Shown: in pieces, positions 4,316 through 18,129 of the stretch
Numbering within the stretch: position 1 is the first letter of the stretch
How the letters are laid out: the number at the start of each line of letters is the position of its first letter
From: Abditibacteriaceae bacterium
GTDB lineage: Bacteria; Armatimonadota; Abditibacteriia; Abditibacteriales; Abditibacteriaceae
DNA length: 18,129 bases
Reading direction: 5' to 3'
Assembly: GCA_031425655.1 (NCBI GenBank)
Contig: JANPJS010000243.1
Coordinates: 1 to 18,129 of the forward strand
The notes under the pieces: generated by a model
The model's input: only the letters and a program-made list of their open reading frames with translations
Databases searched by the model: none
Told to the model about the DNA's origin: nothing
Made by a program: the position numbers and the translations under genes

Positions 4316-4439
4316 CGGCGCTGTAATAGCCGAGGTCGCCTGCGCCCATGTCATCGGTGAGCACGAAAACGATGTTGGGCGCGGCGTGTGCGGCGAGCAT
4401 CGAAAGCAGCAAAGCGGTGAAAAATGCGAAGGTTTTCAT
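4311..4439 (-). pseudogene. 5' remnant of a sulfatase (paralog of 9421-10755) with an in-frame 72-nt deletion
   Basis: [43 protein letters not shown] versus [38 protein letters not shown](24 aa)YYSAAP in the intact gene. Confidence 0.88.
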
Positions 4440-5533
4440 GGTTTGGAGCCGGTAATTTCAGCGCAGAGCTTAAAAAAGGCGCGTTTGCGCGCCGAACTAA
4501 GACCCCAGTTTACCGGCACGCTTTGATAGCCTTCGTCCAACGATTCGCCTTTGCGGCGAAAGTCGAACCAACCCCACGAAGCGTGTTCAGCGAGAGCAGA
4601 CACGAAATTGTTGGCAGGTTGATCGAAGTTTTCGTGATCGTCTTCGTTAAAAACAATCGGCTTTGGCGTGTAGCCGGGAACAGCGCGCGTTTGATGCACC
4701 ATTTCGGCGATGCGCTGCGACTTTGTCACGCCGTTGCCGTGCAAGAGTAGAAAATCCGAGGCGCGCACCACATTTTCGCCGGGAATCGCGCCCCCGCCGT
4801 AACTGGTGCTCACCAAAAGGCGCCGCCCGTCGCGCTGCGTTTTTTGCACGCGCTCGATAAGTTCGTGCACGCGCGCCGGTTTGAGAATCGCGTGGTCGTA
4901 AGCGGTAACATTGCACTCGTTGTCCACTTCGATGAGCACATTGCGCCAACCGCCGTCCAGCACAAAGCGTGTGGCTTCGTCGGTGGCGCGCAGCACGGCG
5001 GCTTCGTCGCGCAGGCGTTGGTCTTGGCCGAAATAGAAGTAGCCCAAAATGACGGCCATGCCGTTTTCGTCTGCCGCATCCAACACGCGCGCCATGCGCG
5101 CGGCAAATTCAGGCCGCAGCGCGCCTTCGGTGGTGAATGCGCTGTTCTCCCACGGCTGCGCCTTCGAGTAGCCTTCGGGCGAGCCGCCCTGAAAGTTCAC
5201 CGTGACAGCCAGCAGTCCGTGCCGCTTCCATTGCGGCAGCGCGGCGATGAATTCGCGCACATTGCGTTCGGCGTCCCATTTTCCGGTGTCGGCGTAGGCC
5301 CAACGCGAGGCCGTCTGGGGGTTCAAATCGTCGAAAGTCGCCTGCACCATGCGCGAGTTGAGCAGCAAGCCTTCGACGCGGTGCCCGTTCCACACGCGGC
5401 CCTGATAAGTCGGCGCGCCGTTGATGTAAAAATCCGCGCCCACGATGGAAACCGTAGTTTTGCGCGGTTTTTCGGCGCCTAACGAAGATGAAGTAGGCAG
5501 AAGTAATGCGGCGCAGAGGGCGAGTTTTTTCAT
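4436..5533 (-). CDS. Secreted TIM-barrel glycoside hydrolase-like protein (clan GH-A / GH5-like)
   Basis: 365 aa from ATG 5533 (MKKLALCAALLL signal peptide). Candidate acid/base motif DNECN and nucleophile motif IVFNEDD. The stop overlaps the next start (ATGA). Confidence 0.7.
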   Translation of the reverse strand: MKKLALCAALLLPTSSSLGAEKPRKTTVSIVGADFYINGAPTYQGRVWNGHRVEGLLLNSRMVQATFDDLNPQTASRWAYADTGKWDAERNVREFIAALPQWKRHGLLAVTVNFQGGSPEGYSKAQPWENSAFTTEGALRPEFAARMARVLDAADENGMAVILGYFYFGQDQRLRDEAAVLRATDEATRFVLDGGWRNVLIEVDNECNVTAYDHAILKPARVHELIERVQKTQRDGRRLLVSTSYGGGAIPGENVVRASDFLLLHGNGVTKSQRIAEMVHQTRAVPGYTPKPIVFNEDDHENFDQPANNFVSALAEHASWGWFDFRRKGESLDEGYQSVPVNWGLSSARKRAFFKLCAEITGSKP

Positions 5534-5535
5534 GG

Positions 5536-5868
5536 TTATTCTTTTCGTTTGGCGCCCAGTGGTGCGAAAACGGGTGGAATCATGCCTGTGTTCCACTGGG
5601 CGAATTGGTCGTCGAGGCGCTGCAAAATGTCGGGGTTTTGTGCGGACAAATCGGTTTGTTCGCCGATGTCCTGTTTCAGGTTAAACAGCTCTTTTTTGTC
5701 TTTGGTTTTCACCAGTTTCCAGTCGCCGACGCGCACGGCGTATTGCGCGCCGTTTTCCACGCGCCAGAAGAGCTTCGTGTGCGGCCCGCCTTTGTTTTTG
5801 CGCTGCAAATAAGGCAGCAAATCCACGCTGTCCATGACGCGATCTTGCGGCATTTTGGTGTTTGCCAA
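5536..5868 (-). pseudogene. 3' remnant (333 nt) of sulfatase, near-identical duplicate of 10760-11092
   Basis: Direct alignment shows about 13 mismatches in 333 nt by eye. It lacks the N-terminal three quarters, including the CxPxR motif. Confidence 0.92.
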
Positions 5869-6095
5869 TTTACGGAAGTGAAGAAAAGGGCTGGTTCCTG
5901 TCGTTTCACGTCCTCACACGCTACGTTAAGGTGACTTTTTTCAACGGCACGTCACTGCAACCCATTCCGCCCGGCGGCACGCCCAAAAGCAAAGACGCGC
6001 GCTGGCTCGACATCTACGAAGACGACGAACTCGACGAGGCGCAAATCGCCGCGTGGGTGAAACAAGCGGCTGAACTGCCCGGCTGGACGCCGTAG
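5865..6095 (+). pseudogene. 3' fragment of a DUF1801 (YdhG-like) protein
   Basis: PIYGSEEKGWFLSFHVLTRYVKVTFFNGTSLQPIPPGG..KDARWLDIYEDDELDEAQIAAWVKQAAELPGW resembles the C-terminal half of DUF1801 proteins. It has no real start and abuts the sulfatase remnant. Confidence 0.72.
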
Positions 6096-6149
6096 ACGGG
6101 CGTTCGTCGCGTAGCGGTTTTTTCACGATTCGGAGAGAATGTTTTGCGG

Positions 6150-6187
6150 ATTAAGCCGCAATTCTGCGACTTAATAACTTGTTAGGC
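6150..6187 (+). other. attI-like integron recombination site 1 (core GTTAGGC at 6181-6187)
   Basis: GTTRRRY core immediately before a cassette. GTTAGGCGTTG is perfectly complementary to CAACGCCTAAC at the cassette's attC. The site is 30/38 identical to 14180-14217 and has no attC structure upstream. Confidence 0.72.
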
Positions 6188-7090
6188 GTTGTTCACCTCT
6201 CGACATGAAAAAACACCTGCCGCTCGTGCCCCGGTGTTTGGGTTTAAGGCGTCCGCCTCCCAAGACCCGCCGGCAACGCATCCTGCGCCGTGCCGAACGC
6301 ACGCTTTCGGTCGTGCTGTTGCTTTATCTAAACCTTCTGCTGTTCCCGCAGGTGTTGTTTGCGCATAGCGTCTCCACCCAGGGTATCACGATTTACTCCC
6401 GCTCACCGCTGCCGGGTGAGGCCGCCGCGTGTGCCGAGCGGGCGGCGGCATTGCTGCGCCGTTCCGAATTGGCGGTGCCGTCGCGTCGCGAGCGGGTTTT
6501 TGTGTGCAATTCGCCGGGGCTGTTTCGTCTCTTCCGCCCGATGGGGGATCCTTTTGCCGTTTCCTTCCCGCTTACGGACCATGTTTTTGTGGCGGCGGCA
6601 GACTTACCCAGCGATGTCGCGCGACGTTATGGGGCGGATTTCAACACTCGTTCTCTGTCCGGTGTTATTGCACACGAGATTACGCACGGCTTGATCCGGC
6701 GACGATTGGGTTTATGGCGCGGGCTGCGGTTATCGGACTGGGTTAGTGAGGGGTATTGCGACCATGCAGCGCAGGAGAGCAGTTTCCCCGAAGCGGAGGG
6801 GTTGCGCCTCATGGCCTCCGGCCAGAGCCATCCATCACCGTCGTATCGCTATTTCACGTATCGCCAGATGGTGCGTTACCTTCTGGAAGGACGAGGGCTG
6901 TCCTTTTCGGACGTTGTGGCACGGGCTGCAGACTCCTCCGCCGTGAAGGCAGAGACACGGGCTTGGTTACAGACTCAGAACGCTCAATGACAATGACCGC
7001 AACGCCTAACCATGCGCTGCAGCGAACCCGGCCAGCGCGTCGCGGTTGCAATCGAATGCCCTCGTGGGCTGGGTCGCTGAGCTTGGATCG
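6182..7090 (+). mobile_element. Integron gene cassette 1 (single cassette)
   Basis: Bounded by the G/TT crossover points at 6181/6182 and 7090/7091. It holds one ORF followed by an attC. Confidence 0.85.
6205..6990 (+). CDS. Cassette-encoded putative zinc metallopeptidase (HExxH, gluzincin/peptidase MA-like)
   Basis: 261 aa with an N-terminal hydrophobic segment, AHEITHG, and a downstream WVSEGYCD glutamate motif. Confidence 0.65.
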   Translation: MKKHLPLVPRCLGLRRPPPKTRRQRILRRAERTLSVVLLLYLNLLLFPQVLFAHSVSTQGITIYSRSPLPGEAAACAERAAALLRRSELAVPSRRERVFVCNSPGLFRLFRPMGDPFAVSFPLTDHVFVAAADLPSDVARRYGADFNTRSLSGVIAHEITHGLIRRRLGLWRGLRLSDWVSEGYCDHAAQESSFPEAEGLRLMASGQSHPSPSYRYFTYRQMVRYLLEGRGLSFSDVVARAADSSAVKAETRAWLQTQNAQ

Positions 7091-7096
7091 TTAAAC
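7004..7096 (+). repeat. attC site (93 bp, different family from array 2)
   Basis: R'' GCCTAAC at 7004, L boxes CTGCAGCGAACC / GGTCGCTGAG with extrahelical bases, R' GTTAAAC at 7090. Confidence 0.9.
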
Positions 7097-7136
7097 CCAA
7101 AACATCCGCCTTCTTCGTGAGGGCGGATGCTTTTGG
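7097..7136. terminator. Terminator-like hairpin, diverged copy of 7886-7922
   Basis: CCAAAA-CATCCGCC...GGCGGATG-C-TTTTGG inverted repeat. Confidence 0.55.
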
Positions 7137-7174
7137 TTCTGGAGCGGCAAGTCTGACGGGGGAATGCTGTTTCA

Positions 7175-7198
7175 CGGGGACAAGAGTGTCCCCGCCAC
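7175..7198 (-). repeat. REP-like palindrome with GTGG foot
   Basis: The minus strand reads GTGG-CGGGGACA-CTCT-TGTCCCCG: a tetranucleotide foot plus a perfect 8-bp stem. Confidence 0.45.
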
Positions 7199-7203
7199 GG
7201 TGG

Positions 7204-7273
7204 TTATTTGGCGCGTGCGTCGCGCAGCGGCCAATTGGGGTCGGACGTGTGCGCTTCTTAGAAGATTTCGGTG
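7204..7273 (-). pseudogene. 3' remnant of sulfatase, duplicate of 7971-8040 with a nonsense change
   Basis: 7216-7273 matches 7983-8040 at 56/58. AAA has become TAA at 7258-7260. It ends [11 protein letters not shown] versus [11 protein letters not shown]. Confidence 0.88.
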
Positions 7274-7380
7274 ACGACATTTTGGACGACGTCACCGTGG
7301 AAAACAGCGTCGCCGCGCGGGGTAGCTTCGGCGGCACCGCACCGCAACAAGTCGTGGAGCAGTTGCAGTGCGCGTCAGAC
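7264..7380 (+). pseudogene. argH: 3' terminal fragment of argininosuccinate lyase
   Basis: DFGDDILDDVTVENSVAARGSFGGTAPQQVVEQL matches the characteristic ArgH C-terminal SVxxRxSxGGTAPxxV motif. Confidence 0.72.
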
Positions 7381-7491
7381 GATGGACTAATATTAACGGG
7401 GGCACCCTTGTTCACGGAAAACAAATTTTGGGTTAAAATTGGCCCATCGCCAGTGTGGGAACAGAACTTTAATCTTCGCGGTCGAACCGGT

Positions 7492-7851
7492 ATGAAACGA
7501 ATTCTTCCCTTCTTGATTTTCGCGTTGACTGCGTTCGTTCTGGTTCTCACGCCCGTTGTGGCCAAGCGTGCCGCACCCAAGCCTGTCGCCCCGGTGGTTG
7601 CTAACGCTGTGGAATACTCAGCGCCGCACGAGCAAATGGGTTTCGTGGTCGCAACCGACACCACCAAGCGCAAGGAGCTTTGGCGCGAACAGATTTACAC
7701 TGTCCGCATAGACCCCGATTTGGAGCGCGACGTTCAGGACGTCTTCATCACCTCTCTTGCAATCGAGCGTGGATCACTCGTCGTGACCAACGAAAGACAG
7801 GAGATATTCGACCTTGACCTCGCCACTCGAAAAATCACCAAACGAAAATAA
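7492..7851 (+). CDS. Small secreted hypothetical protein (beta-rich)
   Basis: 119 aa from ATG 7492 with signal peptide MKRILPFLIFALTAFVLVLTPVVA. The upstream extension in the ORF track is a chimera of remnants. Confidence 0.75.
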   Translation: MKRILPFLIFALTAFVLVLTPVVAKRAAPKPVAPVVANAVEYSAPHEQMGFVVATDTTKRKELWREQIYTVRIDPDLERDVQDVFITSLAIERGSLVVTNERQEIFDLDLATRKITKRK

Positions 7852-7885
7852 GTGCGCCGCGCTGCACTGTGCGGCGGCGAATGTA

Positions 7886-7922
7886 AAAAGCCTCCCCCTT
7901 CATCATGAAGGCGGAGGCTTTT
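7886..7922. terminator. Bidirectional rho-independent terminator between convergent genes
   Basis: AAAAGCCTCC-C-CCTTCAT-C-ATGAAGG-C-GGAGGCTTTT stem with A/T tails. Confidence 0.7.
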
Positions 7923-7970
7923 CTGTTGAGCAAACAACATCAACCTGTGGGGCGAGGAATTCCCCTCCCC

Positions 7971-9320
7971 TTACTTCGGTTTTGCGTCGCGCAGCGGCCA
8001 ATTGGGGTCGGGCGTGTGCGCTTCTTTGAAGATTTCGGTGGCGCGCTGCACCAGTTCGGGATGCTGGGCGGCGAGGTTGCTTTTTTCGCCCGCGTCGGTT
8101 TTGAGATCGAAGATTTGAATAGGCCTGCTGGGGCCGTTGCGCACCGCTTTCCAGTCGGCCCAGCGCGCGGCTTGCAGGCTGGGGCCTTCGTGCAGTTCCC
8201 AGTAAAAATAGGGGCACTGCGGCGCGGCGCCGCCTTTGAGAAACGAAAGCAGCGAAAGGCCATCGGTTTTGCAGTCGGCGGGAATTTTCGCGCCCGCGAT
8301 TTCGGCGGCGGTGGGCAGAAAATCCCAAAAGGCCCACGGCTCGTCGCGCACTTTATCCGCTGGAATTTGCCCCGGCCAGCGCGCGATGGCCGCTTGGCGC
8401 AGCCCGCCTTCGTAGAGTTCGCGTTTGTAGCCGCGCAAACCGTTGTTCGCCTGCTCGAACAGCTTGCCTATTTCCGATTGCGGCGCGAACGACGAACCGT
8501 TGTCGCCCGCCATAATCACGAGGGTTTTTTCGTCGATTTTCAGTTCTTGCAGCAAATCGAGCAAGCGTCCGAGGTCGCTGTCGAGGCGCGTGACCTGCGC
8601 GGCATAGGATTTTTGCTGGGTCGTCCACGGCTTGTCTTTGTAAATTCCAAAATCGTCGATTTCGTGGCGTCCGTGCGGCAAAGTAATGGCGTAAAACAGG
8701 AAAAACGGCCCGTCTTTTTGGGCGCGCACCCAGCGCAGCGCTTCGTCGGCGATCCGGCTTTGCGCGTAGGTTTTGCCCACAGTTTTGCCGTCGTTGCCGG
8801 GCAAATCGAAGCGTTTGTCGTCGTTGTAAAGATACGTCGGAAAATACGAATGTGCATGACGCTGGCAGTTGTAGCCGAAAAAGTGGTCGAAGCCCTTTTT
8901 CAGCGGGCTGCCTGTGGTGTCGAACATGCCCATGCCCCATTTGCCCACGCAGGCGGTGGCGTAACCGGCAGTTTTGAGAATCTGCGCCACAGTGCGCGTG
9001 TTTTCGGGCAGCGGCATTTGGCCTTCGGGCTGAATTTCGCGGTTGGCGCGCACCGGCGCGTGGCCGCTGTGCAGGCCGGTCATCAGTGAGGCGCGGCTGG
9101 GCGCGCACACCGTGGTGCCGCAGTAGGCTTGCGTGAAGCGCGTGCCTTCCTTGGCCATGCGGTCGAGGCGCGGCGTTTGGATGAGCTTTTGCCCGTAAAC
9201 GCCCACGTCGCCCTGCGCCAAATCGTCGCTGAGCACAAAAATGATGTTCGGCTTGTCGGCGGCGCCCGCGCCCAGCGACAAGCACAGCAGCAGCGCCCAA
9301 ACGAAGAATTTTAGTTTCAT
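7971..9320 (-). CDS. Arylsulfatase family protein (S1, Cys-type), 'sulfatase C'
   Basis: 449 aa with signal peptide, [36 protein letters not shown] and [10 protein letters not shown]. Confidence 0.95.
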
Positions 9321-9361
9321 GGGTGAAATTTTACCGAGCCGGGCTGCGTCTGTCGGTTTTT

Positions 9362-9417
9362 GCAGAAAAATGTTGGGCAGAAAAATGAATTCTATTTTTT
9401 GCCCAACATTTTTCTGC
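9362..9417. repeat. Long intergenic palindrome built of GCAGAAAAAT units (REP-like)
   Basis: GCAGAAAAATGTTGGGCAGAAAAAT-gaattct-ATTTTTTGCCCAACATTTTTCTGC, with arms of about 24 bp. Confidence 0.75.
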
Positions 9418-9420
9418 CTA

Positions 9421-10755
9421 TCAACGGGTGCCTCCTGTTGCCGTAGCGAGCAACTTCGGCAGCGATTGGCGCCACGCCAGCGCGGCGGCTTTCATTTTTG
9501 CCGTCACATCGGTTTTTTCGTCGGCGAGGTTCTTTTCTTCGTTCGGGTCGGCCAACACGTCGTAAAGCTCGGTGCGCGTGCCGTCAGTGTTGATTAGCAG
9601 TTTCCACTGGCCTTCGCGCATCGCCACGTTCGGGCTGCGGTGCTCGGCTTGCGGCGGGTAGGCGAACGACGTGTCGTTGCGCCCGTATTCCCAGAAAATC
9701 GGCTCGGTGCGCGGCGAACTTTTGCCCAGCAGCGCGGCGCTGAAGTTTTCGCCGTCGCTTGCGTAATCGGCGGGCAGTTTCGCTCCCGCGAGGTGGCAGA
9801 GCGTGGGCAGCATATCCACGGCGGTCAGCACAGTGGTTTCGTCCACGCGCGCCGGAACATTTCCCGGCCAGCGCGCGATAAACGGCAGGCGAATACCGCC
9901 TTCGTAGAGGCTCAGTTTGCTGCCGCGCAGGCCCAGCGTGCGCTGTTTGTCGAAAGTCGGCAGCGCACCGTTGTCGGAGGCGTAAATCAGCAGTGTGTTG
10001 GCGGGCAGCGCGTGCATCAAGCGCCCGATTTGCGTGTCGTTTTCTTCCAAAACGGCTTTTAAGTTGGCTTTGGTAGCGCCCTTGGGCGCGTCGTCGGCGG
10101 GCACCCACGGTGTGTGCGGGTCGTCGAGCCACAGGTTCACGAAACACGGTTTGTCGGCGTGGCGCTTGAAAAAATCGAGGGTCTTATCCACGAAAAACGC
10201 GCTGCGATTCCAACGTTTGACGGGGTCTTTGTCGCTCCAAATCCAGTTGGTGGCGGTGATTTCGGGGTGTGGCTCCGGGCTTTCGTAGGTGCCCACGCCT
10301 TCGTCGTAGCCGTAGGCGGCGAATTTGGGTGGGTTTTCCACATCGCGCCCGCCGCCGAGGTGCCATTTTCCGATGTGCGCCGTGGCGTAGCCCGCGTTTT
10401 TGAGAATGCGCGGCAGCGACGGCGCTTCGGTGTCCAGAAAATCGGCTTGTTCGCACTCGCGGTTGCCTTTGCGCGATTGCAAATAGCTGGTGATGTTCCA
10501 GCGCGCCGGAAACTGCCCGGTGAGGAGACCACAGCGCGACGGCGAACAAATCGGCGCGGCGCTGTAATAGCGCGTAAAACGTGTGCCCTGTGCGGCGAGG
10601 CGGTCGATATTCGGCGTTTTGGCCAGTGTGCCGCCGTAACAGCCGAGATCGCCCGCGCCCATGTCGTCGGTCAGCACGAAAACGATGTGAGGCGGCGCGG
10701 CGTGTGCGCCAAGCGTCGCAAGCAGCAAGGCGGCGAAAAGTGCGAAGTTTTTCAT
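9421..10755 (-). CDS. Sulfatase family protein (S1, Cys-type), 'sulfatase B'
   Basis: 444 aa from ATG 10755 with signal peptide, [28 protein letters not shown] and [12 protein letters not shown]. Confidence 0.95.
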
Positions 10756-10759
10756 GAAA

Positions 10760-12097
10760 TTACTTGTCGCGTTTGGCACCCAGTGGCGCGAATACGGGCG
10801 GAATCATGCCTGTGTTCCACTGGGCGAATTGGTCGTCGAGGCGCTGCAAAATGTCGGGGTTTTGTGCGGACAAATCGGTTTGTTCGCCGATGTCCTGTTT
10901 CAGGTTGAACAGCTCTTTTTTGTCTTTGGTTTTCACCAATTTCCAGTCGCCGACGCGCACGGCGTATTGCGCGCCGTTTTCCACGCGCCAGAAGAGCTTC
11001 GTGTGCGGCCCGCCTTTGTTTTTGCGCTGCAAATACGGCAGCAAATCCACGCTGTCCATGACGCGATCTTGCGGCATTTTGGTGTTTACCAACGCGCACG
11101 CAGTGGCGAAAACGTCGAGCGAGGAAACCATTTCGTCATAAGTGCCCGTTGGCAATTTTCCGGGCCACGAAATCACAAAAGGCACGCGCGAACCGCCTTC
11201 ATACATCGAGCCTTTGCCCGCGCGCAGCGGCGCGTTGTCGCATTTAACGGCGTTCAGCGGCCCGCCGTTATCGCTGAAGAAAAACACGATTGTGTTTTCG
11301 GCTTGGCCGCTGGCTTTGATGGCGTCCAAAACGCGGCCTATGCCGTCGTCCATCGCCACCGTCAGCGCGGCATAGGCGCGGCGTTTGGGGTCTTCGATGT
11401 GCTTTACACGCTCCAAATATTGCGGCGTGGTGTCCAGCGGCGTGTGAGCCGCGTTATAAGCCAAATACAAAAACCACGGCTGCGCCTTGTGCTTTTCGAC
11501 GAAAGCCGCGCCCTCGCGCGAAAACGCGTCGGTGAGATACTCTTTTTCGTCCACGTCTTCGCGATTGCGCTGCAACGGAATGTTGTATTCGGCCTTGTTT
11601 TTAACGCCCGGCAAATAGCGGTGCCCGCCGCCGATGAAGCCAAACCAATCGGTGAAACCGCGCACCGTGGGATGGAATTTCGGATGCGCGCCCTGGTGCC
11701 ACTTGCCGATGCCGCCCGTGACGTAGCCCGCCTCTTTTAGCACTTGCGGCAGCAAAATCTGATCGGTCGGCAAGCCCGATTTTTCGTCGTCCGGCCAGTA
11801 ATTGGGGTTGCGTTCGTGCCCGAAACGCTGTTGATAGCGCCCCGTGAGCAGTCCGGCGCGCGTCGGGCTGCAAAACGGGTGGCTGACGTAGCCGTTTGTG
11901 CAAACGAGGCCGCTTTTCGCCAGCGCATCCAATCGCGGCGTCGGAATGTCTTGGCTGCCTTGAAAACCGAGGTCTTTGTAGCCTAAATCATCGGCGATAA
12001 TCACCAAAACGTTGGGCCGCTTGTCGGCGCGTTCGGCGGTGCGCGCCGTGGTGCAAAAGGCCCCAAGGGCCGCAAAAAGTGCGAAGTGCAATTTCAT
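10760..12097 (-). CDS. Sulfatase family protein (S1, Cys-type; GalNAc-sulfatase-like), 'sulfatase A'
   Basis: 445 aa with PNVLVIIADDLG, CSPTRAGLLTGRY, GYVTGGIGKWH, SDNGG and GKGSMYEGGSRVP. Confidence 0.95.
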   Translation of the reverse strand: MKLHFALFAALGAFCTTARTAERADKRPNVLVIIADDLGYKDLGFQGSQDIPTPRLDALAKSGLVCTNGYVSHPFCSPTRAGLLTGRYQQRFGHERNPNYWPDDEKSGLPTDQILLPQVLKEAGYVTGGIGKWHQGAHPKFHPTVRGFTDWFGFIGGGHRYLPGVKNKAEYNIPLQRNREDVDEKEYLTDAFSREGAAFVEKHKAQPWFLYLAYNAAHTPLDTTPQYLERVKHIEDPKRRAYAALTVAMDDGIGRVLDAIKASGQAENTIVFFFSDNGGPLNAVKCDNAPLRAGKGSMYEGGSRVPFVISWPGKLPTGTYDEMVSSLDVFATACALVNTKMPQDRVMDSVDLLPYLQRKNKGGPHTKLFWRVENGAQYAVRVGDWKLVKTKDKKELFNLKQDIGEQTDLSAQNPDILQRLDDQFAQWNTGMIPPVFAPLGAKRDK

Positions 12098-12108
12098 AAT
12101 TTTAAAGC

Positions 12109-13926
12109 CTACATCTGCGCAACGAGCGCTTCAAATTCGTCTATTTGGCCGCGAATGATGCCGAGACTGGCGTTCCAGAACGCGATGTCGTGGGTATCGA
12201 GTCCGAAGCGGCGGGCCAAGGTGGCAGCGTCGGCCATGCCCGCTGCGCCCAGCAGGTCGTCGTATTGCGCGCGAAAACGCTCCGGGTCGCGTTGGTAGCA
12301 GGCATAGAGGCCGAGGCCGAAAAGCAGGCCAAAAGTGTAGGGGTAGTTGTAGAAAGTGGGGCCGTAGTAATGGCCTTTAACGGCCCACATGTAAGGATGC
12401 AGCGGCTCCAAGTGCTCGCCGTAAGTGGCGCGCTGCGCCTGCGTCATCAGGTCGCAAAATTCGCTCGCCGTCAGGTCGCGACTGGCGCGCTTTTCAAAAA
12501 CCGCTTGTTCAAACAAAAAGCGCGAGTGAATATCCACCACCACCATTAAATTCCGTTCTAAGGCGCTGTTAAGCAGCGTGAAACGCTCGCTGGCATTCGC
12601 CTGTGCGACGGCGGCCTCGAAGATCAGCGTTTCGCAAAATATGCTGGCGGTTTCGGCCAAGGTGCTGGGCACGCCGAGTTGCAAAGGTGTGCGCCCTGCC
12701 AAAGTCAGGTTGTGATAAGCGTGGCCGAGTTCGTGCGCCAGCGTGCTGACATCGTAAAAAGAGCCGTCGAAATTCATCAGCACACGCGATTCGCCCGGTC
12801 GGATGCAGGTGCAATAGGCGCCGCCGATTTTGCCAAGGCGCGGCGCGGCGTCTATCCAGCCTTCGCGAAACGACTTGGCCGCGAAATCGGCCAATTCGGG
12901 TGAGTAGCGCCCGAAGTTTTCGACGATGAACGCCGTGGCTTCGGGCCATGACCACGATTTGTTGGCTTCGCCAAGCGGAGCCTGAAGATCGAACCATGCC
13001 AACTGCGGCAGATTTAGCGCGCGCGCTTTGGCGTCCATGTAGCGCCGAAAATCGGGAAACGACTGCACGCAGGCGCTTTGCATGGCTTGCAATGTTTCGC
13101 GGTCGATGCTGTTGCCGATCAGCGTCGGTTCCACGTCGTTTTCAAAGCCGCGCCGCTTGCGCAGCGTGCGCTGATAGCCTTTGATGCCGTTGAGCGCGGC
13201 GCAGAGCGGCAGCGCCACGGTTTCCCACGCTTGAATTTCCGCCTCGAAAGCGGCCTTGCGCACCGCGCGGTCGGGCGACGAAGCCAAAGCGCGCACCGCG
13301 CTCATCGGCAGCACGCGTTCGTTTTGCGGTTCGCTTTGTGAACTGTTTTCGGGTAGCGCCACGGTGACCGAAAGCAGCGCCGTCATGTTGCCGTGCAACT
13401 TGGCCCAGCCGCCCAAAGCCATCGGTTGCAGCGCGGCGGCGAGGTTTTCTTCGCTTTCGCTCATTTGGTGCTGTGCCAAAACCTCGGCACGGCGCAGAAA
13501 AAACTCGTGTTCGCGCGCCAGCGGCGAAGCGGCGAGCAGCGCTTCGATATCGCCCGAACCCAGCCACGCCACCAGCCGCGCGTTCAGTTGGCCCAGCAGC
13601 ACGCCTTGGGTTTCGAGGCGCGATTGGTAGGCTTTGGCCGTGTCGTTGCGCGCGTCTGTCGTGACATAGCAATGAATATAAGAGCCAACCGTGCGCAGCC
13701 GCTCACGAAGCGCATTGACGCGCCCCAGCACCTCTTCGACGCGTTGCACGAAAACCTCGTCGGCGTCTGAGGCATTTTCACGTCGCCGCACTTCGTAGCG
13801 GTCGAACAGCGCGGCCAAGTCGGTAATCGCTTCCAAGACGCGGGCGAACTCGTCTTGAAAAGCCTCGGATTCGAGCGAAGGGAACACCGAAGAAATATCC
13901 CAACGCGGCAGTGGTGTTTGGTTCAT
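12109..13926 (-). CDS. pepF: Oligoendopeptidase F, peptidase family M3B
   Basis: 605 aa with PRWDISSVFP N-terminus, GKIGGAYC, TLAHELGHAYH zinc motif, LAETASIFCE and FYNYPYTFG. Confidence 0.93.
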   Translation of the reverse strand: MNQTPLPRWDISSVFPSLESEAFQDEFARVLEAITDLAALFDRYEVRRRENASDADEVFVQRVEEVLGRVNALRERLRTVGSYIHCYVTTDARNDTAKAYQSRLETQGVLLGQLNARLVAWLGSGDIEALLAASPLAREHEFFLRRAEVLAQHQMSESEENLAAALQPMALGGWAKLHGNMTALLSVTVALPENSSQSEPQNERVLPMSAVRALASSPDRAVRKAAFEAEIQAWETVALPLCAALNGIKGYQRTLRKRRGFENDVEPTLIGNSIDRETLQAMQSACVQSFPDFRRYMDAKARALNLPQLAWFDLQAPLGEANKSWSWPEATAFIVENFGRYSPELADFAAKSFREGWIDAAPRLGKIGGAYCTCIRPGESRVLMNFDGSFYDVSTLAHELGHAYHNLTLAGRTPLQLGVPSTLAETASIFCETLIFEAAVAQANASERFTLLNSALERNLMVVVDIHSRFLFEQAVFEKRASRDLTASEFCDLMTQAQRATYGEHLEPLHPYMWAVKGHYYGPTFYNYPYTFGLLFGLGLYACYQRDPERFRAQYDDLLGAAGMADAATLARRFGLDTHDIAFWNASLGIIRGQIDEFEALVAQM

Positions 13927-14020
13927 AGAGTGGCAGTTTAGCGAGCGGGGGGCACGAAGTTATGGGTTTTTGCCGTCCGTTGGGTCGCTTCCGGTTTGAG
14001 TAAACAGCGCTGGCGTCGTT

Positions 14021-14095
14021 TCGGCGCGTTCGCGCGGCATGCGCTACGTCGCAAAAAGTTCCAAAGATCGCAAAAAGTGCGAATCGTAATTGCAT
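14021..14095 (-). pseudogene. 5' remnant (signal peptide) of sulfatase A, diverged duplicate of 12024-12097
   Basis: MQLRFALFAIFGTFCDVAHA versus MKLHFALFAALGAFCTTART. Identical 15-mer CGCAAAAAGTGCGAA at 14069 and 12071, shared TCGGCGCGTTCG, and a 1-nt frameshift. Confidence 0.75.
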
Positions 14096-14179
14096 GAAAG
14101 AAGTTGGACTGCGCGCCGCTATTTTTGCGGCGAATCGCAATTTGCGGCGCCTTCGCGCGTTTGCGAGAGTTGCATTCGA

Positions 14180-14217
14180 ATTAGGCCGCAGGACTGCGGA
14201 CTAATAACCTGTTAGGC
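14180..14217 (+). other. attI-like integron recombination site 2 (core GTTAGGC at 14211-14217)
   Basis: GTTRRRY core heading the cassette array, preceded by CTAATAACCT and a palindrome. Homologous to 6150-6187. Confidence 0.75.
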
Positions 14218-14271
14218 CGATGCGCGCAGCTTGGTCGCGTGTCATGCTAAAATATGTTGCGGTGATTGATT

Positions 14272-14583
14272 ATGCAAGGAGAAAACTTTAAGTTCCAGTT
14301 CATCATGGTTTTGAGCGTGGCCTTGCTCATCGCTATATTTTTGCCGTTGTCTTTAGGCGTTTTTATGCCAAGTGTTTTTCCTATCAAGCGTGTGGCAGGC
14401 TTACAAACTATTTGTTTTGGTGTCGTTGTCGCTCTTGGTTTGTCCCTCGTTTGCTACCTGCTCGTGTTCTTTGAGGCAAGCAATCCAGTTTTGACGCAAG
14501 ATCGTTCCAACGGTATCATCTTCGGTTTCGTCATTGCGGCTTTCGGGGCAATACTCAAGCTCGCAACCAGGCCGCGAAACTAA
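14272..14583 (+). CDS. Cassette-encoded small membrane protein (about 3 TM helices), unknown function
   Basis: 103-aa hydrophobic ORF filling the cassette, with its stop 10 nt before the attC. Confidence 0.7.
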   Translation: MQGENFKFQFIMVLSVALLIAIFLPLSLGVFMPSVFPIKRVAGLQTICFGVVVALGLSLVCYLLVFFEASNPVLTQDRSNGIIFGFVIAAFGAILKLATRPRN

Positions 14584-14593
14584 ACCAACACCG

Positions 14594-14685
14594 GACTAAC
14601 AAGGCGCTGCACCCGACCGCCTACAGCTTCGCTCGTCGTTCCTCCTCGCTACGCTTCCGGCGGCGGGTGAGCTTGGTCGTTGGGC
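14594..14685 (+). repeat. attC site
   Basis: GACTAAC-AAGGCGCTGCACCCGACCGCC...GGCGGCGGGTGAGCTTGGTC-GTTGGGC. Confidence 0.92.
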
Positions 14686-14688
14686 TGC

Positions 14689-14717
14689 TTGCGCGCAGCT
14701 TGGATGCGTGCGATAAT
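14689..14717 (+). promoter_or_regulatory. Putative cassette-internal sigma70 promoter
   Basis: TTGCGC (14689-14694), 17-nt spacer, TG-c-GATAAT (14712-14717). Upstream of RBS GAGGG and ATG 14737. Confidence 0.5.
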
Positions 14718-14736
14718 GTTGAAACGAGGGAAACAC

Positions 14737-15132
14737 ATGGCACTGAAACTCAACCAAACTTATTCAAGACAAGAAATTAGCCATATGTTGGGCGGCAGCG
14801 TTCAGGCTTATCTGCCGTTCAAAGGCGGCAGAGTTACTTGTGGGTGCTTTCGTGTTGAAGAAGAATACAATCCAGGCGCTCCCGAAGAAGTCATGTTTGG
14901 CTGCGATGTTCCAATGCCAGATGTAGAGAAATCGGCAGAAATGGTTTATGCACAAGCCAAACGTGGTGAAGCTGTTCCCGTCTTTATCTTCCGTGAGCCG
15001 GCCAAATGGGAGTATGTAGGAGATTATCGGTGCGTAGGTTTGTTGCGTGATGCGGCTTTGCTCCGGCAGAAGACACAGGCACATCCGCGCCGAGGCGTCA
15101 TCACCGGCGTCTTGCGCTTCGAGAAAGTCTGA
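14737..15132 (+). CDS. Cassette-encoded hypothetical protein, probable stand-alone SRA/PUA-like domain
   Basis: 131 aa. YSRQEISHMLGG-x-Q...VPVFIFREPAKWEYVGDY resembles SRA-like domains of modification-dependent nucleases (recalled pattern, not searched). Confidence 0.55.
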   Translation: MALKLNQTYSRQEISHMLGGSVQAYLPFKGGRVTCGCFRVEEEYNPGAPEEVMFGCDVPMPDVEKSAEMVYAQAKRGEAVPVFIFREPAKWEYVGDYRCVGLLRDAALLRQKTQAHPRRGVITGVLRFEKV

Positions 15133-15153
15133 ACCGAAAGGCACCAACAAGCC

Positions 15154-15241
15154 GCCGAACAAGGCGCTGCACCCGACCGCCTACAGCCTGCGCTCGTTCC
15201 TCGCTTCGGCTTCCGGCGGCGGGTGAGCTTGGTCGTTAGGC
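15154..15241 (+). repeat. attC site
   Basis: GCCGAAC-AAGGCGCTGCACCCGACCGCC...GGCGGCGGGTGAGCTTGGTC-GTTAGGC. Confidence 0.92.
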
Positions 15242-15279
15242 CGGTGCGCGCAACTTGAAGAGAATTACAAGGGGTTTAG

Positions 15280-16266
15280 TTACAAGTCAATAATCCAACG
15301 ACATACAGACGCAAGCTGGCTATCATCGGTCAAGTTAGCTGCATTCGTCAGTGTCCCGTCTGCGAGTTGTGTCCAAATTTCATCGGCCATGCCGCTGACA
15401 ATGGCGGCGCCGACGAACACCGAAGCAGGTGCGAGGTTGAGTTTGGAGAAGGCATCTCGGATGCGTAACAAAGCGGTTCGTGCTGTTTTCCAGTGTTCAT
15501 CAGCACCAGCGGGGTCAACACCACCTTTAAGTTCGCCTAATGCAACATAAAGCGCACCATTGAGCACTGCCGTGTCAAAGTCTTGCGGAACACACGCGAG
15601 CAGACACAAATCTATATTCTTCCCAACAATTGCCGGGCTGTAGTTGTAGCGAAGAGTGCGCGAGCCTTGAGCATTTGTCCAGCTAAGTGCGTTCGTTTGA
15701 AATTCGATGTCCGGGTCGCTGGAAGTGCCAGTGAGCCACTTTTTGGTTTTGGCGTGCCGCCATTCAAACGGGACGTTCGCTAATGATAGAGCGGCGATGA
15801 TATTGCGGGTTAACTTGCGCTGCGCGATGGCTCCGCCAATGTTCCGCATTGAACCGCCGACGGTATCGCCGCGTGTAATCAGGAACCGATAAACCAACTC
15901 ATCAACCCAATCCGCTCCTGCTATGTCGAGAAAGTTAGCGATAAAGTCTCGCACTGCTTGTTCTTTGGTGGTTGCATCCAGATGACCTGCTGCTTTGTCC
16001 GAAATTCCTGCCGCCGCCACTAGAGCAGCTTGGATGGTAGACAGAGTAAGCAAATCTGCTGGCCTTGATAGCGGTAATGCAACGGCTTTGAGCGCACGCG
16101 CTTGGGTGATGAAAGGCGTGGCCTGCCGATTCTTCTCAAGTGCCAGTTCAAGGAAGCCTGCGCGCGTCTCGGCGTGGCTTGTGACGAGATCGGCTTTGGT
16201 GGTGAGGTGCGATTGATAAGGTTGGCCGGAGTTCTTGTTGCCTACGGGCTGTCCAGTTGCGTTCAT
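15280..16266 (-). CDS. Type II restriction endonuclease, AvaI/BsoBI family
   Basis: 328 aa from ATG 16266 (ATGA overlap with the MTase stop). Motifs TRAGFLELALEKN, ELVYRFLITRGDTVGGSMRN, KNIDLCL and ELKGGVDPAGADEHWKTA. Confidence 0.92.
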   Translation of the reverse strand: MNATGQPVGNKNSGQPYQSHLTTKADLVTSHAETRAGFLELALEKNRQATPFITQARALKAVALPLSRPADLLTLSTIQAALVAAAGISDKAAGHLDATTKEQAVRDFIANFLDIAGADWVDELVYRFLITRGDTVGGSMRNIGGAIAQRKLTRNIIAALSLANVPFEWRHAKTKKWLTGTSSDPDIEFQTNALSWTNAQGSRTLRYNYSPAIVGKNIDLCLLACVPQDFDTAVLNGALYVALGELKGGVDPAGADEHWKTARTALLRIRDAFSKLNLAPASVFVGAAIVSGMADEIWTQLADGTLTNAANLTDDSQLASVCRWIIDL

Positions 16267-17726
16267 TGCGGTTTCTCCCAAACATAGATGCATTTGCGGA
16301 GGGCGTCTCTTCCATGTTCTCCCATTTGTTGGCTGCTGTTGCCCTTGCCCTGTTGCAAAACGGTGATGAGTGGCACCCGAAAACCCAACTTCTCAGCGAT
16401 GTCGGACAAGATCAAGTCAACTGATACGCTTGCGCCAGCATAGCGCACGTTATCATTGACCATAAACAGCGGCGCACCCGGTTTTAGAACGCGCAAACAC
16501 TCGAAAATCACGCAAGCCATTTCATAAAAGTAACCCTTTACCATACGAGGAATGCCAGCATTATTAATGAGTTTCCGTTCTTTCTGATTGTCGAGGTGTT
16601 CAAGAATCGCTTGCAAAAGTGCTTGGCCGTTAGCGGCTTCAATGGGCGCGTGCCAATCGGGATTTATTTCCAGCAGCGACTTGGAGCGATTCTCAACAGT
16701 GCAAGATAGCATTTCTTGCCGCAATTTAATCAGTGCATCGCCAGTAACGCCGAGCAAGGCCAATTCCAGTGCATAAGTGCGTGTATAATCGTAGCGATTA
16801 CAATAAGGGGGCGAAGTTAGAACCGCATCAAATGAATCGCTTGGCAGTCTCTGCAATTCCTGCAAGCACGACCCATGTAAAACTTTTAGTTGCCCCAGCG
16901 TGGCGTTAGGATGTTCCGTCTCAAACAGCCCGCTTTGCTCATCGGATATGCGCGTGTCACAAATAATGTCACTTAGTTTGGCGGTAATTGCTTGGCCAAA
17001 ATCTAAAACCGCACCCTTATCAAAAGGCTTAATACCTTGTCGCCGACCGGAGCGAGCATCCCAGCGCAAGTATTGTCCATCTTTCCGCGTGTAGCTGATG
17101 CTCTCCAGAATGCACAGTAACGCGAATTGCAGCACAGCTTGCACACGCGGGGATTCATCGGTAATCGCCGCAAGATAACGCTCTATGGCTTCCAGTGTTG
17201 CAGGTGGATAAGCACCGTCAGTAATCTTGAGAACTCCCAGAGTGGAGCGTGTAGGCGAATTTCGCCACGGTTGCACCGAGCGCCACCGTTCTATTACGGC
17301 AAAATCGTCGGGGGTAGACTCGCGTCTCAACAATTGCCGTGCGTGCATAATTTTTACGCCGATGGGCAATATCTCGATTCCCGTCGCGTCGATACCTAAC
17401 GCATTGGCCGCAAATAAGGCCGTTCCGCTTCCGGCAAACGGGTCGAGAAGGTGGCCGCTGAGAACACCGCCACCTTGCAGTAATTCCTCAACCAGCGCCG
17501 CAGAAAAAGCCTCCTTGTATTTAAACCAACGATAAGAAGACCGAGTTTTGTTGGCTTGGAACGAAACGAGTTGCCGATTCACAAAAGGCGCTACACTGAA
17601 CCGTGTCTCAAATTGTTGTTGCAATTCCGCATCATTCGCTTTGATTCTGTCAAGAAAGCAGCGAGAAATACTATCCAACGGCTTGAAAGCGATACCAGTG
17701 GAAGGCGGAGAGAGGACTTGAATCAT
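16263..17726 (-). CDS. Cognate DNA methyltransferase (probable N4-cytosine, alpha-type motif order)
   Basis: 487 aa with YRWFKYKEAFS, motif I DPFAGSGT preceding motif IV TSPPY, and C-terminal KGNSSQQMG. Coupled to the BsoBI-like REase. Confidence 0.92.
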   Translation of the reverse strand: MIQVLSPPSTGIAFKPLDSISRCFLDRIKANDAELQQQFETRFSVAPFVNRQLVSFQANKTRSSYRWFKYKEAFSAALVEELLQGGGVLSGHLLDPFAGSGTALFAANALGIDATGIEILPIGVKIMHARQLLRRESTPDDFAVIERWRSVQPWRNSPTRSTLGVLKITDGAYPPATLEAIERYLAAITDESPRVQAVLQFALLCILESISYTRKDGQYLRWDARSGRRQGIKPFDKGAVLDFGQAITAKLSDIICDTRISDEQSGLFETEHPNATLGQLKVLHGSCLQELQRLPSDSFDAVLTSPPYCNRYDYTRTYALELALLGVTGDALIKLRQEMLSCTVENRSKSLLEINPDWHAPIEAANGQALLQAILEHLDNQKERKLINNAGIPRMVKGYFYEMACVIFECLRVLKPGAPLFMVNDNVRYAGASVSVDLILSDIAEKLGFRVPLITVLQQGKGNSSQQMGEHGRDALRKCIYVWEKPQ

Positions 17727-17829
17727 ATTGGGGCATCAATTATTTTCTGTGTGCTTCAAATCATGCGCTGCTACACTGTTCACAAGCAGAGTATAATCGA
17801 ATGCAGTCCTTCCAACGTCCCCAACACCG

Positions 17830-17913
17830 GCCTAACAAGGCGCTGCACCCGACCGCCTACAGCTTCGCTCCCTCGTTCCGGCTTCCGGCGGCGGGTGAGC
17901 TTGGTCGTTCGGC
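17830..17913 (+). repeat. attC site
   Basis: GCCTAAC-AAGGCGCTGCACCCGACCGCC...GGCGGCGGGTGAGCTTGGTC-GTTCGGC. CACCGGCCTAAC is perfectly complementary to GTTAGGCCGGTG at 15235. Confidence 0.93.
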
Positions 17914-18016
17914 GGCTGCGCGCGGCTTGGCTGAATGTGTCATACTCAAAGACAAGTCAAGGAGGCTGCCATGAACACTAAAGAACTTACTACCTACCGG
18001 ACAGTTTAGGTAAGGC

Positions 18017-18129
18017 ATGAAGTGGGACAAGGGCTTTTGGGAGATTTTGTTGGGCCACAAGCCGTTCGAGCCAGTTCCAGCCGATGCGAAACAGGCTCAG
18101 GTCGCGCCGGTCGTTGCGGTCAACGAGAC
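18017..18129 (+). CDS. Possible start of the fourth cassette's gene (truncated by window)
   Basis: Open frame MKWDKGFWEILLGHKPFE... runs to the window end. The alternative start at 17971 has the better RBS but stops after 12 codons. Confidence 0.3.
   Translation, partial: MKWDKGFWEILLGHKPFEPVPADAKQAQVAPVVAVNE

Follow-up and report, generated by a model that had tools for sequence, protein, structure and literature searches.

Orphan attI sites heading cassette arrays in an Abditibacteriaceae genome, and their likely service in trans by a resident integrase

Two cassette-bearing attI sites in one contig

The DNA analysed here (the window; 18,129 nucleotides) is the whole of contig C243 (JANPJS010000243.1) of the Abditibacteriaceae bacterium assembly GCA_031425655.1, a genome of 5.98 Mb and 97% completeness hereafter called G000. 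It carries two arrays of integron cassettes, each headed by a palindromic repeat that resembles attI, the docking site of integron integrases (IntI), and neither is accompanied by an integrase gene (intI) (Table 1). Family and profile searches confirmed the surroundings described in an earlier note made from the letters of the DNA, namely a DUF1801 fragment beside site 1, pepF and a sulfatase remnant beside site 2, and no intI next to either; no intI remnant was detected in the 1.45 kb 5' of either site by profile search, and none by tblastn.

Table 1. Features of the window (ORF, open reading frame).
Feature	Position	Strand	Details
Displaced copy of the 3' end of the sulfatase gene	5546..5868	-	98% over 300 nt; left flank of site 1
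DUF1801 gene fragment	5862..6095	+	covers positions 27-84 of the 85 in the profile; its stop lies 18 nt ahead of the third box
attI site 1	6113..6187	+	third box GCGG 6114-6117; left arm (DR1 position) 6150-6160; loop 6161-6164; right arm with L box 6165-6175; spacer 6176-6180; R box 6181-6187
Single site-1 cassette	6182..7090	+	261-aa ORF 6205-6990; attC 7004-7096; R'' 7/7 with core
Terminator-like hairpin	7103..7129	+	immediately 3' of the site-1 array
Sulfatase gene	10760-12097		reference for displaced gene-end copies
M3-family oligoendopeptidase (PepF-like)	12109..13926	-	host gene; family search
Sulfatase 5'-end remnant	14034..14095	-	71% to 12036-12097; occupies the expected place of the intI 5' end
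attI site 2	14143..14217	+	third box GCGG 14144-14147; left arm 14180-14190; loop 14191-14194; right arm with L box 14195-14205; spacer 14206-14210; R box 14211-14217
Cassette 2a	14212..14679	+	ORF 14266-14583 (no family); attC 14594-14685; R'' 6/7
Cassette 2b	14680..15235	+	ORF 14716-15132 (weak DUF6697); attC 15154-15241
Cassette 2c	15236..17907	+	BsoBI-family endonuclease 15280-16293 and DNA methyltransferase 16263-17726, reverse-oriented; attC 17830-17913
Fourth cassette start, interrupted by a repeated element	17974..18129	+	contig end

The 38-mers starting at 6150 and 14180 align without gaps and are identical at 30 of 38 positions. In each, 11-nt arms that pair at 10 of 11 positions enclose a 4-nt centre and are followed after 5 nt by GTTAGGC, and arm position 5 is an A-T pair in one site and a G-C pair in the other, a compensatory change; all of this had been described correctly. 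The 38-nt repeat described then is real, but the site is longer. Indeed, a third box, GCGG, lies 32 nt 5' of the left arm at both sites (6114 and 14144), the 40 nt upstream agree at 20 of 40 positions (10.8 in shuffles, p=0.001), and homology with other attI sites spans 70-90 bp 5' of the crossover with exact box spacing. The pairing claimed between the core and R'' of the first cassette is complete at site 1 but falls one position short at site 2. At site 1, the crossover would lie at G6181/T6182. No further place within 9 mismatches of either 34-mer was found across the 5.98 Mb genome, and no known RNA family was matched in Rfam. Contigs of sequencing run X1, possibly the source run and hence not independent, bridge both sites with 0 differences.

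Both heads have a GTT R box followed by a cassette with a complementary R'', an inverted L box 5 nt before R in the register of the attI1 record and of the attI beside the resident intI (contig C103, see below), and homology to sites directly 5' of integron integrase genes (C103, intI loci of relatives and matches in a genome collection). They are unlike attC, with no R'' ahead of the left arm and an 11-bp stem without a bulge, and neither locus is a complete integron, as no intI is adjacent. Site 2, with three attCs, belongs among the attC clusters that have no integron integrase (CALINs; at least two attCs and no intI nearby), and site 1, with one, would count as a single attC site lacking an integron integrase (SALIN). 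On sequence grounds, both repeats are real attI docking sites without a recombinase gene of their own, which bears out the solo attI identity first assigned to them.

A genome-wide set of heads and one resident integrase

Only one protein of G000, encoded on C103, exceeds the integron-integrase cut-off (TIGR02249; 428 bits versus 265). It covers profile positions 4-313 of 315, is full length with no stop and with the catalytic motifs present, and its gene lies beside an attI that has the same arms as the window sites and a 14-nt loop. An attC profile detected 66 sites which, together with the divergent attC at 7004, form 35 arrays. A strong right arm (score at least 16) stands at the head of 13 of the 35, 12 of them without intI, the right-arm matrix having been trained on 11 of the 13 and the G000 motif derived from G000 sites; seven other arrays start within about 1 kb of a contig start, and their heads may be missing. 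About 12 intI-less arrays of G000 start with the attI type of the window. A looser motif scan of the genome gave 15 matches, 10 of them at array heads, versus 2-3 in three shuffles, and the full palindrome, when each arm is allowed no more than one mismatch, is present seven times in 6 Mb, always at an array head. The several chromosomal landing pads and an intact IntI elsewhere in the genome, both part of the distributed integron proposed in the earlier note, were recovered.

Differently loaded alleles, as envisaged in that proposal, were found in relatives at intI-less orthologous loci, though not at the window sites. Between genomes G014 and G024, the pair L279/L277 is 89.8% identical over 1502 nt ending exactly at GTT, and the pair L127/L128 diverges 20 nt past GTT; the cassettes differ in both pairs, and no intI was found in the examined flank of either. 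The counterpart of G009 L130 in G018 is a variant head with another cassette. The spacer of solo sites is of the resident type at 27/27 sites in three genomes with 5-nt spacers and at 24/32 in six genomes with 6-nt spacers, counts from which sites with ambiguous arms were dropped and in which kin are not independent. The length type maps to one branch of IntI (99/97 support). Spacers are 5 nt throughout G000 and mostly 6 nt in G001 and G002, which belong to its genus; they are 6 nt also at two G002 sites closely homologous to site 1. At the five long-loop sites of G000, the boxes are 88% alike and the spacers 39%.

Since orthologous intI-less pairs differ from or near GTT onwards, and spacer length tracks the resident integrase, service of the two window sites in trans by the resident integrase is likely. 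Solo heads, a resident IntI and differently loaded relatives all favour this part of the earlier proposal, but at the two window sites themselves such service is a prediction. Overall, the two sites are probably orphan copies of the roughly 65-75-bp attI of this lineage, members of a genome-wide set served by one integrase in trans. In relatives, integron platforms appear at new loci, where intI is then deleted and the head remains or, alternatively, only attI with 0-200 bp of upstream DNA is copied. By analogy with class 1 integron biochemistry, IntI would bind the double-stranded boxes with both arms on one helix face, and the C103 integrase would recombine the folded attC bottom strand of a cassette at G/TT, as in class 1 (PMC8946536). 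The comparison of relatives suggests that orphan heads may gain or lose cassettes after intI loss, and that the heads that are kept would match the resident spacer length. Cassettes are probably transcribed by read-through from an upstream host gene; in a crude ORF count, the upstream gene is co-oriented at 54 of the 78 sites with a near ORF, which allows such transcription.

A broader proposal is possible, if doubtful: that in this bacterial family the integron is a network in which one integrase that changes locus over time serves 10-20 selected docking sites, a head of about 60 bp being copied without intI, landing behind transcribing host genes and being kept or tuned to the resident spacer, and that many CALINs elsewhere are live recipients. 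Copying of the head as a unit would fit the five head copies in G013 that start at the same base.

In addition to the circularity of the matrix and the kinship among the spacer counts, several points weigh against service in trans. No ortholog of either window site was found in 26 family genomes. Site 1 has a G to A change at a nearly invariant arm position, and both window sites belong to a short-loop subfamily nearer to solo sites of G002 and G003 than to the resident long-loop attI. A good left arm is lacking at 48 of the 99 sites that passed the right-arm filter, out of 106 collected. Turnover of solo sites is fast, since only two of the five G014 solo sites are common to G024 and three are absent at the orthologous place. 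The different cassettes of the orthologous pairs can reflect differential loss or homologous exchange; at L127/L128, homologous recombination may have contributed, because the last attC is shared and the gene before it is not. Descent from the resident integron, rather than later selection, could account for the conserved boxes and the matching spacers. Among the joints listed in contigs of three runs, of which X2 and X3 do not cover the window sites, no attI x attC excision joint was found, and contigs drop rare variants. No sigma-70-like promoter was found at either head, a search that does not cover the promoter consensus of this phylum.

Origin of the solo heads and competing explanations

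An exact pattern occurs at 31 loci among 185,579 species; intI lies directly upstream at 6 of them and a convincing core-matching attC follows at 10, with Armatimonadota, Acidobacteriota, Chloroflexota and Fraserbacteria represented, and the palindromic attI anatomy, including intI-adjacent copies, thus occurs in several phyla. About a third of the 31 (Clostridia, Bacteroidota and others) have neither and may be chance hairpins. Nine metagenome matches comprise three with long intI matches, three with remnants, one with none and two without flank. An exact short pattern did no better than its control in three genus mates. The profile used in its place, built from the head and the start of the cassette, had matches in 20 of 24 family genomes and in 1 of 16 from outside the family, with up to 19 per genome, some attC junctions among them. 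The wider motif search proposed in the earlier note recovered solo heads within the family. A PepF-like gene is present in 16 of 26 family genomes, and ten such loci, two of them with less than 350 nt of flank, had no motif and no attC. Genome G011 (one contig, 93% complete) has ten attI-like head matches, one intI remnant and no intI over E 1e-60, an end state with no integrase left. First cassettes in relatives are often very short (120-210 nt) and apparently without ORF (G013 L144, L174, L177 and L182; G002 L010).

The sequences of relatives point to two ways in which solo heads arose, deletion of intI and copying of attI. Regarding the former, intI remnants stand beside 8 of the 90 loci examined in relatives (the 60 top profile matches and 30 further loci). 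The locus of the full integron of G009 holds, in G018, an internally deleted intI, attI and another cassette, and no integron in G016, G022, G014 or G004; the G014 integron locus has a 3' intI stump in G041, and the C186 array of G000 occupies the place where G001 and G002 keep intI. Regarding copying, five solo sites of G013 share exactly 55-57 bp 5' of GTT with the intI-linked site, and two of these (L177 and L182) are identical over 63 bp within unrelated flanks and with different cassettes. In G017, L176 matches the head of its own genome at 96% over 200 bp and carries 27 intI codons. Movement of a whole integron as a giant cassette was considered and rejected: AAC overlaps the intI stop in 3 of 18 listed ends (one further overlap lies beyond these), which is no enrichment over the 18% of 3104 long ORFs, and the empty alleles are too diverged to display junctions.

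A relic origin, which the earlier note had named as a refutation, thus holds for many solo sites, which have intI remnants or lie where relatives keep intI, but these are not thereby inactive. That they are inert, i.e., heads left after intI loss, with cassettes loaded earlier in cis and now decaying, is unlikely, although degenerate arms in about half of the sites and the commonness of intI decay (PMC2426708) would also suit it. The head of array C211 in G000 illustrates both sides, since it lies alongside a 5' intI stump of 23 codons and yet has a perfect 11/11 palindrome and ten attCs. Furthermore, inertness does not fit the orthologous pairs, intI-less in both genomes, whose difference begins exactly at GTT, nor the five G013 copies, whose common stretch is limited to 56 bp upstream of GTT and includes no intI.

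Less probable still is that heads and cassettes moved mainly by host homologous or one-sided recombination with DNA of relatives, anchored in attI, attC and flanking genes, the integrase being unneeded at solo sites. Displaced gene ends abound around both window sites, the left ends of copied heads vary between genomes (-56 to -197) with no fixed GWT triplet, L127/L128 share a terminal attC without its gene, and G002 L106 and L115 resemble two alleles with replaced attI and cassette. However, divergence exactly at GTT would still require that an integrase had acted on an intI-less site in one donor or another, the arrival of heads is explained better than their loading, and the conservation of boxes over spacers is left unexplained.

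The nature of the palindrome bears on a further alternative. In the plasmid record of attI1, the 11-nt DR1 box is separated by 5 nt from an 11-nt segment with the L box at its end, and 5 nt more lead to GTT; in these terms the window sites read 11, 4, 11 and 5. The right arm of the palindrome is therefore the L box, part of the core site, and the left arm the equivalent of DR1. DR1 and DR2 are described as accessory IntI sites that favour attI x attC recombination (PMC8946536, PMC3146285, PMC4792948), and the arms presumably appear palindromic since both approach one binding consensus. Thus, what had been taken for an additional accessory IntI or host-factor site consists of an L box and a box in the DR1 position, an arrangement that is normal in this attI family. 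At 51 of the collected sites the left arm reaches 7/9 or more, versus a null mean of 2.7 of 97. Of the loops at these sites, 33 are 3-5 nt long, 17 are 12-14 nt and a single one is 8 nt, and upstream the GCGG boxes repeat with a period of about 10 bp. Loop classes and GCGG phasing point to proteins on one face of double-stranded DNA, not to a hairpin.

There is accordingly little to recommend a site unlike attI1, with the palindrome folding into a functional hairpin or cruciform, or serving as the target of a host factor. The stems fold with z scores of -1.7 to -3.3, arm positions 5 and 6 covary over the 51 sites (p=0.002 and <0.0001), and G-T mismatches exceed A-C ones, 29 to 15. Nevertheless, the covariation reported earlier, although real, is modest and partial: Watson-Crick pairs occupy the two free arm positions in 29/51 and 30/51 sites (within-genome p=0.03 and 0.09), the variable pairs are broken in 21-22 of 51, and 68 of 112 mismatches are not wobble. 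The two loop classes, moreover, lie one helical turn apart with 1 of 51 between them, no copy exists outside array heads, and the geometry equals that of DR1 and L in attI1. A site of a host regulon is unlikely because the palindrome is confined to array heads; lexA is present in G000, with only 249 nt upstream of it assembled. Finally, that the sites are secondary attG hot spots, resembling attI by chance or convergence, is hardly credible: insertion at attG is efficient and yields intI-less cassettes (bioRxiv 10.1101/2022.09.11.507474), and G000 arrays C95, C137 and C102 have no arm at the head, but the attG consensus is described as merely GWT plus short motifs, whereas the window sites share 70-90 bp and exact box spacing with other attI sites, and the homology 5' of the arms largely refutes a chance likeness.

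Relation to known integrons, and cassette content

The attI1 site (DR2, DR1, L and R; about 65 bp) resembles the window sites in its GTT core, 5-nt spacer, L box and similar length (PMC4792948, PMC8946536, PMC3146285), and in a directly oriented accessory box placed 11+4/5+11 nt ahead of the spacer. In contrast, the accessory and L boxes are here near-perfect inverted copies, with loops of two lengths that keep the helical phase; relatives also have a class with 6-nt spacers, and an adjacent intI is missing from most copies. CALINs, attC arrays without a neighbouring intI, occur in half of the cases in IntI-bearing genomes, and loss of intI from one of several integrons has been named as a possible origin (PMC4889954; bioRxiv 10.1101/2022.09.11.507474). 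In the accessible text, they are defined without attI, the detection tool matches attI of classes 1-3 only exactly, and they are seen as cassette donors or attG products, whereas the present arrays retain attI and appear to act as recipients. One prophage CALIN has its own attI, an intI-less array headed by the cognate site (PMC9892861), a single extra site for which the accessible text gives no loading test; here such sites number about a dozen on a chromosome, across a family, and orthologs carry different cassettes. In decayed chromosomal integrons, intI is frequently deleted or frameshifted and the array kept (PMC2426708; Xanthomonas, bioRxiv 10.1101/2025.06.18.660453), a loss described there as array freezing, whereas here an intact integrase exists elsewhere and many heads coexist. 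Published work thus covers CALINs, how they might arise by intI loss, and use in trans (PMC4889954, PMC9668308, bioRxiv 10.1101/2025.06.18.660453, bioRxiv 10.1101/2022.09.11.507474, PMC9229058, PMC2426708). A literature search, with most subscription papers and supplements (including possible attI lists) outside its reach, gave no account of chromosomes with multiple orphan attI sites or of orphan orthologs that carry different cassettes, and no paper on integrons of this phylum.

In the textbook integron, one attI lies by intI, and CALINs are regarded as dead ends or as donors. Should orphan attI sites remain loadable, a single integrase could place cassettes in many expression contexts and spread gene capture over the chromosome, and counts of active integron platforms in environmental genomes would be too low. 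If the network proposal were true, many CALINs in other phyla would be live recipients, missed as tools cannot see attI outside classes 1-3. The family offers a natural series, with two loop phases and two spacer classes tied to integrase clades, on how IntI reads attI and on the roles of accessory repeats, and an attI motif searchable across several phyla is a practical gain.

Regarding the heads of other arrays, attI-like right ends lie inside arrays at C186:31762 and C193:52636 of G000, the latter resembling a hybrid of a cassette end with an attI spacer plus core. Most cassettes of G000 and relatives open with a common GC-rich signature of about 20 nt after GTT (29/51 starts, a fuzzy pattern), and a conserved stretch lies ahead of R''. 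At C14:3965, a cassette begins a few bases past an apparent tRNA 3' end, the last bases of which mimic an arm. On seven G000 contigs (C23, C33, C48, C84, C126, C278 and C286), the end of a repeated element of about 65 nt has one exact arm-like 11-mer; it is apparently an insertion sequence (IS) or miniature inverted-repeat transposable element end, unrelated to cassettes. The locus 3' of a phosphomannomutase-like gene (G000 C24, G024 L277, G014 L279; the gene was identified by reading, with no family search) differs between two genera in the type of attI present and is without attI in most other family genomes; independent reuse of this locus is possible.

Within the window, the 261-aa ORF of site 1 has no Pfam or NCBIfam match, and past the hairpin that follows no additional cassette-start signature was seen. 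The attC of this cassette is foreign to the main attC family of G000, and its type is very abundant in other organisms of the sequencing runs compared (summed depth 570-3600); since it is abundant there and unlike the genome's own, the cassette is probably foreign. The attCs of the three site-2 cassettes are of the genome's own type and share 90-94% identity with attCs from other arrays, that of cassette 2a being 93.5% identical to attCs on C314 and C100. The element that interrupts the fourth cassette recurs at five other contig ends and is a probable IS. Displaced copies of sulfatase gene ends at 4378-4440 (87%), 5546-5868 (98%), 7216-7276 (95%) and 14034-14095 (71%) bracket inserted segments, both attI regions among them. 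The BsoBI-type restriction-modification pair of cassette 2c (15280-17726) looks intact and forms one reverse-oriented cassette, part of which is matched by a contig of run X2 at about 89%.

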